A stretch of DNA of 35,083 bases. Source: an uncultured archaeon (lineage in GTDB: Archaea > Altiarchaeota > Altiarchaeia > IMC4 > SCGC-AAA252-I15). The notes beneath the pieces are model-generated. The model saw only the letters and a list, made by a program, of their open reading frames with translations, was not told where the DNA came from and did not search any database. The DNA is taken from contig CAZPLO010000007.1 of NCBI GenBank assembly GCA_964587725.1, positions 1 through 35,083 of the forward strand, read 5' to 3'. This document shows, in pieces, positions 24,332-30,970 of the stretch. The translations under genes were made by a program, and so were the position numbers. Numbering within the stretch: position 1 is the stretch's first letter; each line of letters begins with the position of its first letter.

Positions 24332-25338
24332 TTCGTAGACTCTATGAACTCCTCCAGCTTATTATATGCGGCGCCGGAGTCAATGAGTTCCGCAGCCTTC
24401 TCAAGGCCGCCACCCATGTCCTTCTCCTCCCCTGCGACCATCAGTCCGGCGGCGGCGTTCAACAGCACGATATCCCTTTTCGCGCCCGCTTCCGAGCCTG
24501 AGAGTATTTTGCGCAGTATGTCCGCGTTTTCAGGCGGGGAGCCGCCGACTATGTCCTCCAGTTCGGCCTTTTTTATCCCGTACTCTTCCGCGTCGACGAT
24601 GAACGACTTCACATTCCCGCCGGACAGTTCGCTGACGTTGGTGGCGCCGAGGTTGCTGAACTCGTCCAGCCCCGGGTCGCCGTGCACTACCATCGCGCGT
24701 TCGGAACCCAGCCCCTTGAAAACGTATGCGAGCTTCTCCGTCAACCCGCCGTCGAACACTCCCATAAGCTGCTTCTGGGCGCCGGCGGGGTTGGTGAGCG
24801 GCCCCAGTATGTTGAACACCGTCCGGATGCCTATCTGCTTCCGCGCAGGCATCACGTATTTCATGGCCGGGTGGTGCATGGGCGCGAACATGAAACCGAT
24901 GCCCGCGTCCTCTATGCACGCTTCAATCTCCTCCGGCTTCAGGTCTATGCGCGCACCCAATGCTTCGAGAACGTCGGCGCTGCCGCAGTTCGACGTGAGG
25001 CTGCGGTTCCCGTGCTTCGCCACAGATATCCCTGCCGCCGCCAGCACGAACATGCTGGCCGTGGACACGTTGAACGTGTTTTTGTGGTCTCCGCCGGTCC
25101 CGCAGACGTCCACCAACGCACCCTTCACCTCCGGATTTATCCTCACCGAATGGTCGCGCATCACCTTAGCGAACGCCGCAATCTCCTCCGGCGTCTCCTC
25201 CTTAATCTTCAGCGCCGTCAGAAACGCCCCCGCCTGCGCGTCACTGGCCTGCCCGGTCATAATCAGCGTCATAGCGTCCTCCGCTTCCGCGGGCGTCAAG
25301 TGCATGCCCGCGGACACCTTCCTTATGTACTCCTTCAT
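24328..25338 (-). CDS. trpD: Anthranilate phosphoribosyltransferase
   Basis: DVCGTGGD..TFNVST, KHGNRS..S..GSADVLEALG, RTVFNILGPLTNP, GLDE. Confidence 0.97.
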   Translation of the reverse strand: MKEYIRKVSAGMHLTPAEAEDAMTLIMTGQASDAQAGAFLTALKIKEETPEEIAAFAKVMRDHSVRINPEVKGALVDVCGTGGDHKNTFNVSTASMFVLAAAGISVAKHGNRSLTSNCGSADVLEALGARIDLKPEEIEACIEDAGIGFMFAPMHHPAMKYVMPARKQIGIRTVFNILGPLTNPAGAQKQLMGVFDGGLTEKLAYVFKGLGSERAMVVHGDPGLDEFSNLGATNVSELSGGNVKSFIVDAEEYGIKKAELEDIVGGSPPENADILRKILSGSEAGAKRDIVLLNAAAGLMVAGEEKDMGGGLEKAAELIDSGAAYNKLEEFIESTK

Positions 25339-25913
25339 TTTTTCACACCCAAAAAGTTTTCTATGATTTTTTTCCCGTCGACTGTGAGTATGGACTCGGG
25401 GTGGAACTGCAGCCCGTACAGGGGGTAGTCTCGGTGCTCCAACACCATCACCTCATTGTCGTCGACGCTCCTCGCAGTCGCAACAAGCTCGCCCGGCAGG
25501 TCGTCGACGACGAGGGAATGATACCGTGTGGCCTCCAGGGGATTCACCATGCCCTTCAGCAGTCCCGTGCCGTCGTGCTCTACCCTGCTGACCTTCCCGT
25601 GCATCAATGTCCGCGCATTCCTTATTGTGGCGCCGTGGCAGTATCCGATGCACTGGTGGCCGAGGCACACGCCCAGAAGCGGCGTTTTCGGTCCGTACTC
25701 GCGGATCACATAGTTGGAGACGCCCGCGTCCTCCGGCCTCTTCGGCCCGGGACCCACTATGATGTGTGAGACGTCGCCTGCGGACATGATGTCGTCTATA
25801 GCCTGTTCGCCGACCCGGTTGTCGACCACCACGGGGTTGCCGCCCAGCTCCCCCACGTACTGCACCAGTATGTACACGAACGAGTCGATGTTGTCTATGA
25901 CAAGGGTTCTCAT
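25335..25913 (-). CDS. trpG: Anthranilate synthase component II (glutamine amidotransferase)
   Basis: IDNIDSFVY, GPGPKRP, LGVCLGHQ, RYHSL, QFHPES; start ATG at 25913. Confidence 0.96.
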   Translation of the reverse strand: MRTLVIDNIDSFVYILVQYVGELGGNPVVVDNRVGEQAIDDIMSAGDVSHIIVGPGPKRPEDAGVSNYVIREYGPKTPLLGVCLGHQCIGYCHGATIRNARTLMHGKVSRVEHDGTGLLKGMVNPLEATRYHSLVVDDLPGELVATARSVDDNEVMVLEHRDYPLYGLQFHPESILTVDGKKIIENFLGVKK

Positions 25914-25957
25914 CCGTCCACCCCCAGCGCCTTCAACAGCGCCCGCCCCTTGTTCAT
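25910..25957 (-). repeat. Stranded duplicate of the trpE 3' end (MNKGRALLKALGVDG*)
   Basis: Encodes the same first 13 of the last 15 residues as 26041-26088, 131 bp away. Its TGA overlaps the trpG ATG (ATGA). Confidence 0.93.
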
Positions 25958-26006
25958 GCACGGCTCGCTCCGTGCACACGCGTGAGCGACCTCGCTACGC
26001 TCGGTC
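25957..26006. repeat. Cluster of short GC-rich hairpins (REP-like)
   Basis: TGCACGG-ctcgct-CCGTGCA (25957-25976), CACGCGTG (25977-25984), GACC-tcgctacgctc-GGTC (25988-26006). Confidence 0.6.
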
Positions 26007-26040
26007 CCTCTGAGATTCGCCGCCAAAGCCACACATAAAT

Positions 26041-27429
26041 TCACTCCCGCACCCCCAGGGCTTTGAGTAATGCTCTTCCCTTGTTCATGGTTTCATCATA
26101 CTCTTTCTCCGGCACGGAGTCCGCGACTATGCCGGCGCCCGCCTGCACGTACGCCTTGTCTTTTTCGAACGCTATGGTGCGGATGGCTATGGCGGTGTCC
26201 ATGCTCCGGTTGAAGCTGAAGTAGCCTACGCAGCCGGCGTACACGCCGCGACGGTCCGGCTCCAGTTCGTTGATTATCTCCATCGCCCGCACCTTCGGGG
26301 CGCCGGAAACCGTGCCGGCGGGGAATATGCTCTCCAACGCGTCAAACTCCGTCCTGCCAGCTGCGAGTCTGCCCGTTACTTCGGAGCTCAAGTGCATGAC
26401 GTGCGAGTACTTTTCGACGGCCATGAACTTCGTAACATCCACTGAACCATACTCAGCCACCCTGCCGACGTCGTTCCGGCCCAAGTCCACGAGCATGACG
26501 TGCTCCGCCCGCTCCTTCGGGTCCGACAGCATGTCCTCAGCCAGACGTTCGTCTTCGGCGTCGTCTTTTCCGCGCCTTCTCGTCCCCGCTATCGGATAGG
26601 TCGACACAACACCGCCTTCAACCCTGGCGAGCGTCTCCGGGCTGCTCCCCACTATCTTACGGTCGCCGAAATCGAGGTAATACATGTATGGACTGGGGTT
26701 GATGTCCTTCAGGCGGAGGTAGGCGCCGAATTTGTCGCCGCCGTATTCCGTGGCAAGCCGCTGCGACAGCACGGTCTGGAAGGTGTCGCCCGCGCGGATG
26801 TACCCCTTTATTGCGCGCACTCCATCCTCGTATTCGTGTTCGGTGGTGTTGCTTTCGAACCCGTCTGCGACGGCGCCGTCGTCGAACCCAGTCTCCTCCA
26901 ACCCCGCGGCTATCTCCTCGAGCCTCCGCAGCGATTCCTCCACGTCCACGTCGTGGCCGTTGAGGAAGTGGTTCTCCACCAGGTAGGTTTCGCCTTTCAC
27001 GTGGTCGAATATGATGTTGTTCCGGGTGAGGCAGAATTCCGCGTCCGGCTGCCGCAGCGCGTCCACCCCGTTTTCGAGGTCGACGTAGTATCTGACTGCG
27101 TCATAGCTGAGGTAGCCTACGAACCCTCCGCTGAACCGCGCCAGCGACGGGCCCCGCTGCGGATACTGCTCCACAAGACCCCGTATCACGGTGAGGGGGT
27201 CGCGTCCTTCCGGTTCGGCCTTGAACTCGCGGTCGAATACGGTGAAGTCCACGACGCCGTCTTTCACCTTGACTTTGGCGGCGGGGTTGAATCCTATGAA
27301 ACTGTACCTGGCTTTTTTCTCGCTGCCTTCTATGCTCTCCAGCAGGTACGTGTTCTCACCCCTAAGGCTCAGGTAGGCGTGCTCCGGGTCCCGTGCGGGA
27401 ATCTTAACGTAGGTTTGATTAACCTCCAT
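26041..27429 (-). CDS. trpE: Anthranilate synthase component I
   Basis: YLLES...ARYSFIG, GGFVGYLSYD, NPSPYMYY, GSSPE, PIAGTRRRG, AEHVMLVDLGRND, GTVSGAPK, QAGAGIVADS. Confidence 0.97.
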   Translation of the reverse strand: MEVNQTYVKIPARDPEHAYLSLRGENTYLLESIEGSEKKARYSFIGFNPAAKVKVKDGVVDFTVFDREFKAEPEGRDPLTVIRGLVEQYPQRGPSLARFSGGFVGYLSYDAVRYYVDLENGVDALRQPDAEFCLTRNNIIFDHVKGETYLVENHFLNGHDVDVEESLRRLEEIAAGLEETGFDDGAVADGFESNTTEHEYEDGVRAIKGYIRAGDTFQTVLSQRLATEYGGDKFGAYLRLKDINPSPYMYYLDFGDRKIVGSSPETLARVEGGVVSTYPIAGTRRRGKDDAEDERLAEDMLSDPKERAEHVMLVDLGRNDVGRVAEYGSVDVTKFMAVEKYSHVMHLSSEVTGRLAAGRTEFDALESIFPAGTVSGAPKVRAMEIINELEPDRRGVYAGCVGYFSFNRSMDTAIAIRTIAFEKDKAYVQAGAGIVADSVPEKEYDETMNKGRALLKALGVRE

Positions 27430-27484
27430 GAACAACAAATAGGTAAAATGAATATAAAAATGTAAAAATGAACAACAATATACA
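27428..27484. promoter_or_regulatory. trp operon promoter region with phased ATGAA(C/T)A repeats
   Basis: ATGAACAACAA at 27428 and 27468 and ATGAATA at 27448 (20-bp period); minus-strand TTTTTATA at ~27453-27460. Confidence 0.5.
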
Positions 27485-27564
27485 TATTATGTGGAAGATG
27501 ATAAAATTCTATCTTTCACTCAAAAAGTGCATGAAAGCTTTAAATTATTCAACCCAATATTTTA

Positions 27565-29223: not shown

Positions 29224-29498
29224 TGGAATACGACAGCATAGAGGAGGCGAGGAAGAGGCTGGGGCTGGGTAAGACAGCCACATTGGATGAGGTGAAGGAA
29301 GCCTACCGGCGGGTGGCGCGGGAAGCCCACCCCGACCGGGGCGGAGACGCCAAGGCGATGGCTGAGATAAATAGGGCATACGACACAGTAATACAGTACA
29401 TCAGCGGGTACAGGTACTCCTTCCGCAGCGAAGACGTCATGGAGCAGAACCCAGACGAAAAGATGTGGGAGGCATACAGGAAGAATCCGCGGTGCTGA
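29220..29498 (+). CDS. Stand-alone J-domain (DnaJ-like) protein
   Basis: LGL...ATLDEVKEAYRRVAREAHPDRGG...MAEINRAY; ATGA coupling to the upstream gene. Confidence 0.9.
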   Translation: MMEYDSIEEARKRLGLGKTATLDEVKEAYRRVAREAHPDRGGDAKAMAEINRAYDTVIQYISGYRYSFRSEDVMEQNPDEKMWEAYRKNPRC

Positions 29499-29512
29499 AG
29501 GAGGACGTGAAA

Positions 29513-29767
29513 ATGACCGGAGAACACGAGGGAAGGAAGAACCTTACGGACGAGACATTGGATTTGGAGCGGGGCAGACAGAGCCTCATAGAGGAACTGG
29601 AAGCCATAAACTGGTACCAAGAAAGGGTTGAGGTCTGCAAGGACCCTGAATTGAAGAGGATACTGGAGCACAACCGCGACGAAGAGAAGGAACATGCGGC
29701 GATGCTGATAGAGTGGCTTCGCAGCAGGGACGAGACGCAGGACAGGATGTTCGAGGAGCACGACTGA
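29513..29767 (+). CDS. Encapsulated-ferritin-like (EncFtn/Flp) half-ferritin
   Basis: SLIEELEAINWYQERV...ILEHNRDEEKEHAAMLIEWLR. Confidence 0.88.
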   Translation: MTGEHEGRKNLTDETLDLERGRQSLIEELEAINWYQERVEVCKDPELKRILEHNRDEEKEHAAMLIEWLRSRDETQDRMFEEHD

Positions 29768-29769
29768 AG

Positions 29770-30219
29770 ATGAGAGTTGCGGTGGCGACGAACAAGGGAG
29801 GGCTCGGAGACAGTGTGTCGCCGGTGTTCGGCAGGTGCCCCACCTACACGGTCGTCGAGGCAGATGATGCTGTGAAGGGCGCTGATACCGTCGGCAACCC
29901 GGGGCATACTGCGGCCGGCGGCGCGGGCATACAGGCGGCGCAGTATGTCACGGAACTGGGCGTGAATGCGGCGTTGGCGGGGAACTTCGGACCGAACGCC
30001 GCCGCAGTGCTCGAGCGCAGCGGGGTTGAAATGGTCCGGGCAGAAGGCAACGTTAAAGACGCCGTGGAAGCCTACTTGCGCGGGGAACTGAAGCCCCTGG
30101 AGGAGCCAAACGTGAGAGGCCATTTCGGCATGGGCCGCGGAGGAAGGGGCGGCGGAGGCCGCGGAGGAAGGGGCGGCGGAGGCCGCGGAAGAGGCGGCGG
30201 CAGAGGGGGACGGTTGTAG
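29770..30219 (+). CDS. NifB/NifX-family dinitrogenase FeMo-cofactor-binding domain protein with RGG tail
   Basis: MRVAVAT...VSPVFGRCP...GGAGIQAAQ...GNFGPNA; HFGMGRGGRGGGG tail. Confidence 0.9.
   Translation: MRVAVATNKGGLGDSVSPVFGRCPTYTVVEADDAVKGADTVGNPGHTAAGGAGIQAAQYVTELGVNAALAGNFGPNAAAVLERSGVEMVRAEGNVKDAVEAYLRGELKPLEEPNVRGHFGMGRGGRGGGGRGGRGGGGRGRGGGRGGRL
30133..30189 (+). repeat. 24-bp tandem repeat (2.4 copies) encoding GRGGRGGG
   Basis: ggccgcggaggaaggggcggcgga x2 followed by ggccgcgga. Confidence 0.9.
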
Positions 30220-30220
30220 A

Positions 30221-30559
30221 ATGGATGACATGAACGACATATTAAAGGAAGTGGAGGGGTCGCTGAAGCAGTTGGGCAAGGAGTATCCGGAGCAGATGAA
30301 TGCGTTCGCCAGCTTCATGCACTCCGCCGAAAAGGAGGGTGTTTTGCCGCATAAGACGAAGGAGCTGATAAGCATCGCGCTGTCGGTTGCGACGCAGTGC
30401 AAGTGGTGCGTAGCATACCATGTGAAGCATGCGCTGGAGGCCGGAGCAACAGAGGACGAGATTATGGAAACCTGCTTTGTGGCGGCGTTGATGGGCGGTG
30501 GTCCGTCGCTGATGTACACGCAACTGGTGGTGAAGGCCTTGGAGGACTTCAGAGAATGA
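30221..30559 (+). CDS. Carboxymuconolactone decarboxylase / AhpD-like protein
   Basis: GVLPHKTKELISIALSVATQCKWCVAYHVKHALEAGAT.DEI.E...A..MGGGP. Confidence 0.92.
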   Translation: MDDMNDILKEVEGSLKQLGKEYPEQMNAFASFMHSAEKEGVLPHKTKELISIALSVATQCKWCVAYHVKHALEAGATEDEIMETCFVAALMGGGPSLMYTQLVVKALEDFRE

Positions 30560-30951
30560 GGGTTGCTGTGCCCACGCAGGGAGGAGGGGGCCTGGAAGAC
30601 ACAGTGGGGGAGCACTTCGGCCGCACACCCACTTACACCCTCGTGGACCCTGATTCGATGGAGGCTGAGGTGATAGAGAACATCAGCCACCACATGGGCG
30701 GAGCAGGTTATCCGCCGGAGCTGCTGGAGAAACACGGCGTCAACGTGCTGCTGTGCAGGGGCCTGGGCAGGCGGGCGATTCAGATGTTCAGCGAGAAAGG
30801 CATAGGCGTCTACTGCGAAGCCTCCGGAACCGTGGAGGACGCGCTCCGGCAGTGGAGGAACAACGAGCTCGTGAAGGCCACGGAAGACACCGCCTGCAGC
30901 CGGCACGAGTTCCGCGGCAGAGACCATGGGACTGAGAAGTGCGGGCATTGA
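30556..30951 (+). CDS. Second NifB/NifX-family protein
   Basis: MRVAVPT...VGEHFGRTP.Y...HHMGG...LLCRGLGRRA...GTVEDAL; C-terminal Cys/His tail. Confidence 0.9.
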   Translation: MRVAVPTQGGGGLEDTVGEHFGRTPTYTLVDPDSMEAEVIENISHHMGGAGYPPELLEKHGVNVLLCRGLGRRAIQMFSEKGIGVYCEASGTVEDALRQWRNNELVKATEDTACSRHEFRGRDHGTEKCGH

Positions 30952-30970
30952 ATTTTTCACTGTCACGGTA

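Follow-up and report, generated by a model that had tools for sequence, protein, structure and literature searches.

The 35,083-nt window analysed here belongs to the genome of an uncultured archaeon of the Altiarchaeales (G000 in the following), a metagenome-assembled genome (MAG) of 1.56 Mb in 48 contigs that is 92% complete. It carries a tryptophan operon with the gene order trpE, trpG, trpD, trpC and trpF, all identities being confirmed by Pfam, and our subject is a short two-hairpin element located between the first two genes. All coordinates of operon features are positions in the window and all features are read on the minus strand. trpE, which encodes component I of anthranilate synthase, spans 26041..27438 (Pfam Chorismate_bind, E 2.9e-94, and Anth_synt_I_N, E 7.4e-32, together with the translation). 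The listed start is the TTG at 27438, whereas the true start is likely to be the ATG three codons later, which would give the protein the beginning MEVNQ... found in relatives. trpG, the glutamine amidotransferase subunit, lies at 25335..25913 (Pfam GATase, E 9.6e-48). The last 16 codons of trpE, which we call X, occupy 26041..26088 and encode MNKGRALLKALGVRE* (the asterisk marks the stop). They are followed by an 83-nt spacer (25958..26040) and by a stranded second copy of the trpE end, X' (25910..25957), which encodes MNKGRALLKALGVDG*. X reads ATGAAC...GAGTGA and X' reads ATGAAC...GGATGA; they share a 12-nt core, CATGAACAAGGG, and are offset by 131 nt (26088 minus 25957). The TGA of X' overlaps the ATG of trpG in the sequence ATGA, and the same overlap is present at all three further junctions examined (trpG/trpD, trpD/trpC and trpC/trpF). 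X' also retains a GGGGGTG stretch just upstream of trpG that looks Shine-Dalgarno-like by eye. The first-pass annotation had described this arrangement as an integration scar with a replaced trpE 3' end, and the sequences it quoted, the core, the offset and the overlaps at the other junctions all proved exact.

We compared the two copies codon by codon. The first 13 codons of X and X' encode identical residues, with 10 nucleotide differences that fall in 7 consecutive codons and are all synonymous. The last two sense codons differ in the encoded residues, which are RE in X and DG in X', so that 33 of 48 positions are identical overall (15 differences in 48 nt). When 10 random substitutions were simulated, the peptide was left unchanged in 0 of 20,000 runs. 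The G+C content of third positions in codons 4-10 was 0.29 for X compared to 1.0 for X'. X is recoded with the rare AT-ending codons AGA, TTA, GCA and GGA; across the operon AGA accounts for 4 of 91 Arg codons and TTA for 3 of 106 Leu codons. X' carries the commoner codon of the operon at 6 of the 7 differing codons, and its tail GVDG* resembles the GVEG* of a congener (G001), whereas the tail of X (GVRE*) does not. This supports X' as the presumably ancestral, host-like end of trpE and X as the atypical one. A freely drifting spare copy is expected to gain amino-acid changes and the selected copy to gain the fewest. We observed the opposite, which suggests that X and X' each belonged to a functional gene in a lineage of its own while they diverged, and that they were joined later. 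The comparison thus supports a divergence of both copies under coding constraint, and a simple fresh local duplication would not account for it. On all of these points, namely the identical residues with the run of synonymous differences, the A-richer active copy, the ancestral status of the stranded copy and the selection on both copies that argued against local duplication, our analysis agrees with the first-pass annotation. One strain variant, a C to A change at 25947 that was found in one Logan contig, would turn a Gly of X' into Val and suggests that the amino-acid sequence of X' is not constrained.

The spacer between the two copies is a miniature element that comprises a T/G-rich linker, a first hairpin and a second hairpin, as recognised by a covariance model (R1), by nhmmer and by comparison with other genomic copies. 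Hairpin 1 (25984..26010, identified by folding) is built from a GACC/GGTC stem, an internal loop of tandem G.A and a short GC stem. Copies differ in the sequence of this hairpin, and by eye the tandem G.A loop can be read in many of the variants. GTGTG and hairpin 2 (GCACGG-AGCGAG-CCGTGC) form the family signature at 25958..25979, an exact pattern match whose last base abuts X'. Across the family this signature reads GTGTG-N-ACGG-AGCNAG-CCGT-N-C and is near-invariant, with two N positions that are able to pair. The closing pair of hairpin 2 covaries: among 78 distinct cores we counted C-G 38 times, A-T 29 times and other combinations 11 times, and in the alignment of 63 copies it is CG in 33 and AU in 27. 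The covariance model matches 25958-26026 with 61.1 bits (E 2.4e-20), and the nhmmer family profile matches the trpE spacer as well. The hairpin-1 region folds better than its shuffles, with a mean z-score of -2.34 and values below -2 in 39 of 63 copies; these scores derive from mononucleotide shuffles and the 63 copies are not independent. The consensus structure computed with MAFFT and RNAalifold recovered only hairpin 2; the support for hairpin 1 comes from the folding of individual sequences and not from covariation in the alignment. Between G000 and a genome of another genus (G002) hairpin 1 shows one compensatory change, from A-U to G-C. The size of the element ranges from about 50 to 110 nt, with a minimal unit of about 51-55 nt that consists of the two hairpins. 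The left boundary is variable, and among the copies with a clean duplicate we found no common terminus and no mirror of the right end. The linker is T/G-rich and variable in length and may be decayed target sequence. An Rfam covariance scan of 25500-26500 at E values up to 10 yielded only a chance snoRNA match elsewhere in the region.

A genome-wide search with the spacer revealed that its right half recurs within G000, where the nhmmer profile matches 7 copies strongly and 2 weakly. The spacer is a full member of this dispersed family, which fits one of the options named in the first-pass annotation, a minimal non-autonomous element. The other strong copies adjoin the 5' ends of tRNA-Met, tRNA-Asp, tRNA-Gly (two in tandem) and one further intron-bearing tRNA, which is called SeC by aragorn and has its copies in tandem beside a run of N. 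Five strong copies beside tRNA genes show the same layout as at trpE, that is, an intact end, a T/G-rich linker, a variable hairpin 1, hairpin 2 and a stranded duplicate. The exact 22-nt signature occurs at 49 loci in species-representative genomes, 47 of which are archaeal by record label. Altiarchaeales or Altiarchaeota account for 13 of them, and the labels among the rest are Iainarchaeota, Woesearchaeota, Nanoarchaeota, Thermoplasmatota, Methanobacteriota, Methanosarcinales or simply 'archaeon'. The two loci with bacterial labels look like chance matches, as they have neither a hairpin 1 nor a duplicate starting at the end of hairpin 2. Allowing at most one mismatch, the signature was present in 14 of 61 Altiarchaeota genomes with 1-6 copies each, and the reversed-pattern control gave 0. 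A metagenome scan added 37 further loci. The signature had no match in 2.9 million viral contigs, and the search of a 60-nt element copy against phage and plasmid records returned no real match, only one chance match of 30 nt in a phage.

Some of the loci show more complex arrangements. At C22:2700-3070 of G000 (L005) there is a tandem array in which each unit is composed of 12 nt of a tRNA 5' end, 34 nt of upstream sequence and a 63-nt element; the units are identical, and the array includes a run of N. About 51 nt of further hairpin-rich sequence split the hairpin-2 loop of the third unit, which looks like a nested insertion into that loop. At C1:144677-145140 (L003/L004) the gene for tRNA-Gly(GCC) has two successive upstream copies, each with a stranded promoter and the first 15 nt of the gene. 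A third, weaker hairpin insert lies downstream and is followed by a stranded copy of the 3' end, so that one tRNA gene has been struck three times. For a Thermoplasmatota genome (L047, L049, L063, L080 and L087, from the MAG and from metagenome contigs) we observed the signature inside a longer multi-copy repeat. Within the repeat the signature is accompanied by further conserved hairpins to either side, and a flanking duplicate is not evident; the repeat may represent a composite or a related element of larger size.

The element typically comes with a direct repeat of the gene end next to it. We identified 39 distinct copies in which such a repeat begins 0-3 nt after hairpin 2, with a length of 15-125 nt (median 27) and an overall identity of 93%. 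At trpE the duplicate begins at offset 0 and is 48 nt long. The DNA between the repeats measures 47-160 nt in the genome set. In the metagenome set the distance from the left repeat to the signature is at most 293 nt although 8-kb flanks were searched at 37 loci, and no cargo of kilobase size was found. The intact gene can lie on either side of the element and in either orientation, as we observed for the 3' ends of coding sequences and for both the 3' and the 5' ends of tRNA genes. This is the pattern predicted by a symmetric insertion at the DNA level with target duplication, if only those insertions survive that leave an intact copy of the gene. The junctions showed no clear preference: when the end of hairpin 2 was compared with the sequence upstream of the duplicated segment, a C at position -1 occurred in 14 of 39 cases and a 2-nt match, judged by eye, in about 3 of 39, which is not clearly above chance. 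Outside Altiarchaeota, orthologous gene ends were found occupied at the same nucleotide in several genomes (L081, L104 and L106; L044 and L059; L036, L079 and L102), among them a thiolase-like C-terminus (...VHVFKRLK*) and a gene ending in ...GGKQSGL..W*. Recurrent occupation of orthologous sites thus seems to be a trait of the family.

Diverged duplicates like the one at trpE were encountered at two further loci. In another Altiarchaeota genome (L074) the last ~28 codons of a gene are duplicated; 13 of the 16 differing codons are synonymous and the copy on the element side is the AT-richer one. A Nanoarchaeota locus (L072) shows the pattern in part, with 79 of the first 80 nt identical and a run of synonymous differences thereafter. 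At trpE, L074 and L072 alike, it is the element-proximal part of the working copy that has diverged. Compared to the usual pattern of the family, the addition at trpE is unusual in that the working gene end is most likely a foreign, synonymously diverged version.

We then turned to the trpE/trpG site in related genomes. From 40 relatives we obtained 30 trpE loci, and trpG was adjacent in 21 of them. The site was filled in 3 of the 21 (G000, G001 and G002), with hairpin 2 abutting ATGAACAAGG in each. G001, from the same genus as G000, has a 74-nt element and duplicates that are identical at 48 of 48 positions (L046). In G002 the duplicates are identical at 60 of 62 positions and reach 18 nt into trpG (L076). 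At 13 of the 21 loci the site is empty, and trpE and trpG overlap or are separated by no more than 5 nt. One of these loci is that of G009, the genome with the TrpE most similar to that of G000 (78% identity). The comparison of junctions proposed in the first-pass annotation therefore delivered the empty and the filled variants, though not a larger cargo-bearing insert. Another 3 of the 21 loci have other spacers, and 2 have other two-hairpin inserts of 77 and 82 nt with duplicates of 8 and about 17 nt (L014 in G018 and L016 in G023, respectively). The 3' hairpin of L014 has the layout of hairpin 2 with a different sequence. We did not count these two as family members because the covariance model recognises neither of them at E values up to 1. 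The core element of G000 is about 91% identical to that of G002 (our own count over the aligned 55-nt core), while the congener G001 has another type of hairpin 1.

Two neighbouring observations concern the same set of relatives. The non-coding leader upstream of trpE (window 27430-27500; L009) agrees with G002 over the congener G001 at most informative sites, so the 5' end of the operon may also be mosaic. In G021 (L029) a hairpin-rich stretch follows the trpE stop and is itself followed by a stranded internal fragment of trpE (residues ~381-403, 78% identical), which represents a different kind of rearrangement.

The filled sites have a further property in common. In G000 the trpE stop is overlapped by the GTG of a further open reading frame (ORF) of 44 codons (25910..26044, taken from the ORF list and its translation). 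From this GTGA the frame continues across the element and X' as far as the ATGA with which trpG starts. Equivalent open frames exist in G001 (TTGA, 41 codons) and in G002 (ATGA, 42 codons), that is, in all three filled genomes, and the spacer lengths of 83, 74 and 77 nt in G000, G001 and G002 are all 2 mod 3. We propose that translation of this relay ORF keeps trpE and trpG coupled. There is modest evidence that only insertions preserving such a relay of translational coupling would persist, G000 and G002 not being independent cases.

In order to evaluate whether the locus is correctly assembled, we examined separately assembled Logan contigs. The junction is spanned by contigs from 4 runs, all belonging to one microbial-mat study; three of the contigs show 0 differences and the fourth a single one. 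None of the sequencing runs listed with this sequence was an RNA run. Three of the four runs may be the source of the MAG itself, although the assemblies are separate. No deletion joint, that is, no form without the 131 nt, was present in the contigs of the 4 runs; contigs drop rare variants.

Taken together, we consider it rather probable that the 83-nt spacer represents a protein-less two-hairpin mobile element in full length, that X and most of the element were acquired from a diverged lineage by recombination and that coupling is maintained through the relay. The family membership, the pattern of duplication, the filled and empty sites of relatives, the divergence under coding constraint and the open relay frame were observed directly, whereas we infer the foreign origin of X, the translation of the relay and the individual steps of the insertion. 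These steps would have been as follows. An insertion 45 nt before the trpE stop would have duplicated at least the last 48 nt of trpE. The intact trpE would have been left on the linker side, and the displaced duplicate would have stayed fused to trpG on the hairpin-2 side together with its upstream signals and the ATGA overlap. The donor of X and of most of the element would have been a diverged Altiarchaeales lineage, and in the homologous recombination that brought them in the right-hand crossover would have fallen within the 12-nt core or the invariant hairpin 2. X and the element may have arrived at an empty site in a homing-like manner or as the allelic replacement of a site that was already filled. 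The purely synonymous divergence of X and X' would then be due to the origin of X in that other lineage. The relay ORF, which begins with the GTGA of the trpE stop and ends with the ATGA of the trpG start, would have kept the two genes translationally coupled. As for the insertion itself, we can only speculate that it occurred by target-primed run-off copying, as for short interspersed nuclear elements (SINEs), or by templated insertion during repair by host enzymes. Long variable duplications combined with one precise and one variable end would fit either of these.

Several observations do not sit easily with this interpretation. The folding energy of the G000 copy itself is ordinary (z = 0.19 for the 83 nt and -1.61 for the 55-nt core). 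About one third of the motif copies have no duplicate nearby. We found no mobilising enzyme: G000, at its 92% completeness, has no match to RVT_1, the TnpB-type family PF07282, DDE_Tnp_1 or Y1_Tnp and encodes one tyrosine recombinase only. RVT_1 was present in 1 of 21 family genomes, which was neither G001 nor G002. DDE_Tnp_1 was detected in 5 of 14 motif-positive and in 25 of 47 motif-negative genomes, and in none of G000, G001 and G002, so there is no association with the motif; the 61 Altiarchaeota genomes of this comparison are 57-97% complete and the absences are absences from incomplete genomes. The identical duplicates in G001 and G002 would fit either recent independent insertions or an old insertion that was homogenised by gene conversion. 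X is only ~70% identical to the X of G002, and the presumed donor lineage is without a match among the relatives compared. Finally, a three-taxon test on informative sites was weak. It hints at a G002-like last ~190 nt of trpE but places the strongest single breakpoint at the alignment's 5' end.

There are several other possible explanations for the trpE junction. The insertion and target duplication could have occurred locally and the copies could have diverged in place in this lineage, both of them under selection because X' is translated in the relay or was subject to gene conversion until recently, without any foreign DNA. The near-complete identity of the duplicates in G001 and G002 demonstrates that X and X' can stay alike, near-identical duplicates are the norm of the family (93% overall) and the frame containing X' is open in all three filled genomes, all of which speak for local divergence. 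The 15 changes over 48 nt, rare codons among them, are however on the side of X; X' has remained host-like and close to the trpE end of the congener, and a selected copy is not expected to drift further than the spare one. The Gly to Val variant already alters X' among strains, and hairpin 1 resembles that of another genus (G002) and not that of the congener. We therefore regard local divergence as unlikely. Less likely again is an RNA or DNA device that serves the host, such as a processing site, a stabiliser, an attenuator that tunes trpG against trpE or the excisable switch considered in the first-pass annotation. A function of this kind could explain why hairpin 2 is near-invariant across phyla with a covarying closing pair and why the insert lies between translationally coupled genes in three genomes with the frame kept open. 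But 13 of the 21 junctions in relatives overlap or abut without any insert, the distribution is patchy and of low copy number (14 of 61 genomes), the element is found in either orientation relative to the neighbouring genes and Rfam gave no match at E values up to 10. For the switch in particular, a form lacking the 131 nt was absent from the Logan contigs of the 4 runs, from which rare variants could escape.

The first-pass annotation had put first an element that targets the conserved trpE C-terminus, brought an attP-like replacement gene end and later lost its cargo; the junction would then be the scar of a large integrative element, a virus or plasmid. The layout is indeed that of prophages integrating into the 3' ends of genes, such as phage 21 and e14 in icd, and G000 does encode a tyrosine recombinase. 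These prophages of E. coli carry a replacement gene end, an integrase and tens of kilobases of cargo and use one att site. Both there and at trpE the working end is a diverged version with synonymous differences (foreign at icd and, as we propose, also here) and a short identical core precedes the stranded native end; the trpE case differs in the absence of cargo and in the many targets of the family. Only 83 nt separate the copies here, and in the 39 duplicate-flanked members of the family the distance between the repeats never exceeds ~300 nt. The same short module duplicates whatever gene end it enters, at many unrelated targets and with no single dedicated att site, and even the trpE site itself has repeats of unequal length in different genomes (48 compared to 62 nt). 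The 2.9 million viral contigs lack the signature, as do the collections of phages and plasmids. The integrative scar is largely refuted and we consider it very improbable. An assembly chimera of two strains, which the first-pass annotation had itself raised as a possible objection, might be suspected in a metagenome MAG of 48 contigs. Its probability is close to nil given that the contigs of 4 runs span the junction with at most one difference and that two other genomes, G001 and G002, show the same architecture.

Other candidates were tried and rejected. For a diversity-generating retroelement, the housekeeping target and the pattern of differences do not fit. No bulge-helix-bulge motif of the corresponding intron type was seen by eye, a group II intron remnant had no Rfam match, and for a CRISPR-like array the 'spacers' do not fit, being identical copies of the target.

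We also compared the element with known systems. Insertion with long target duplication was reportedly described by Nobusato et al. in 2000. In the later account of Furuta, Abe and Kobayashi (2010, PMC2853133) the repeats exceed 30 bp, vary in length and often overlap a gene 3' end or a tRNA, and the insert contains no transposase or integrase. This is the nearest published concept, with the difference that the inserts in PMC2853133 are kilobase-sized restriction-modification units in bacteria and no archaeal case passed that screen, whereas we observed a hairpin module of 50-110 nt. Miniature inverted-repeat transposable elements are defined by terminal inverted repeats and a short fixed duplication; our copies have no common or mirrored termini and duplications of 15-125 nt. 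Among archaeal repeats the nearest appear to be MJRE1-3, palindromic repetitive elements of Methanocaldococcus jannaschii that Suyama, Lathe and Bork are said to have reported in 2005. By title these are small palindromic, protein-less archaeal repeats that may sit within or beside coding sequence, and the likeness is one of description. The exact signature was not met under a Methanocaldococcus label at any of its 49 genome loci.

The insertion sequences IS1634 and IS1549 are IS4-related, autonomous elements with a DDE transposase, terminal inverted repeats and long variable direct repeats. They share the long variable duplications with the element, which in turn has no conserved left terminus and no accompanying DDE_Tnp_1 in G000, G001 or G002. 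Repetitive extragenic palindromic (REP) sequences and REPINs are short, non-autonomous extragenic palindromes that are mobilised by RAYT (Y1) proteins and do not generate long target duplications; our element does, and there is no Y1_Tnp match in G000. The same long duplications, being the rule in the family, and the lack of PF07282 and Y1_Tnp in G000 also distinguish it from guide-RNA elements of the TnpB/IS200-IS605 type (PATE-like). SINE-like retroposons have variable duplications, one precise end and one variable A/T-rich end. The family shows the variable duplications and a precise end at hairpin 2, its T/G-rich linker of variable length may be no more than decayed target, and G000 lacks RVT_1. 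In literature searches we found no description of such an archaeal element, which is not proof that none has been published.

A wider reading goes beyond the trpE locus, and we offer it with considerable doubt. The protein-less module of ~55 nt, near letter-perfect across several archaeal phyla, could possibly be a new class of mobile element that is copied into gene ends by the universal replication and repair machinery of the host and leaves long target duplications. It might spread between lineages by homing, with the gene-end copy acting as a homology arm that replaces the end of the recipient gene, as perhaps at trpE and at L074. A machinery that produces target duplications of 15-125 nt without a transposase, an integrase or a reverse transcriptase would be new biology, if found. 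The family would be a kind of archaeal mobile DNA that is widespread and seems not to have been described before; it is smaller than any transposon, geneless and conserved across phyla, and it rebuilds the gene ends it strikes. It can explain stray fragments of tRNAs and gene ends in MAGs of DPANN and Altiarchaeota that annotation pipelines would otherwise misread. A foreign, synonymously recoded end beside the native one would be a natural marker of recombination between uncultured archaeal lineages. The relay ORF, if it is translated as proposed, illustrates how an essential and translationally coupled operon junction can tolerate an insertion.

Outside the operon the window contains, at 29437-30966 on the minus strand, an ORF of 509 aa that has no Pfam match at an E value of 0.001.

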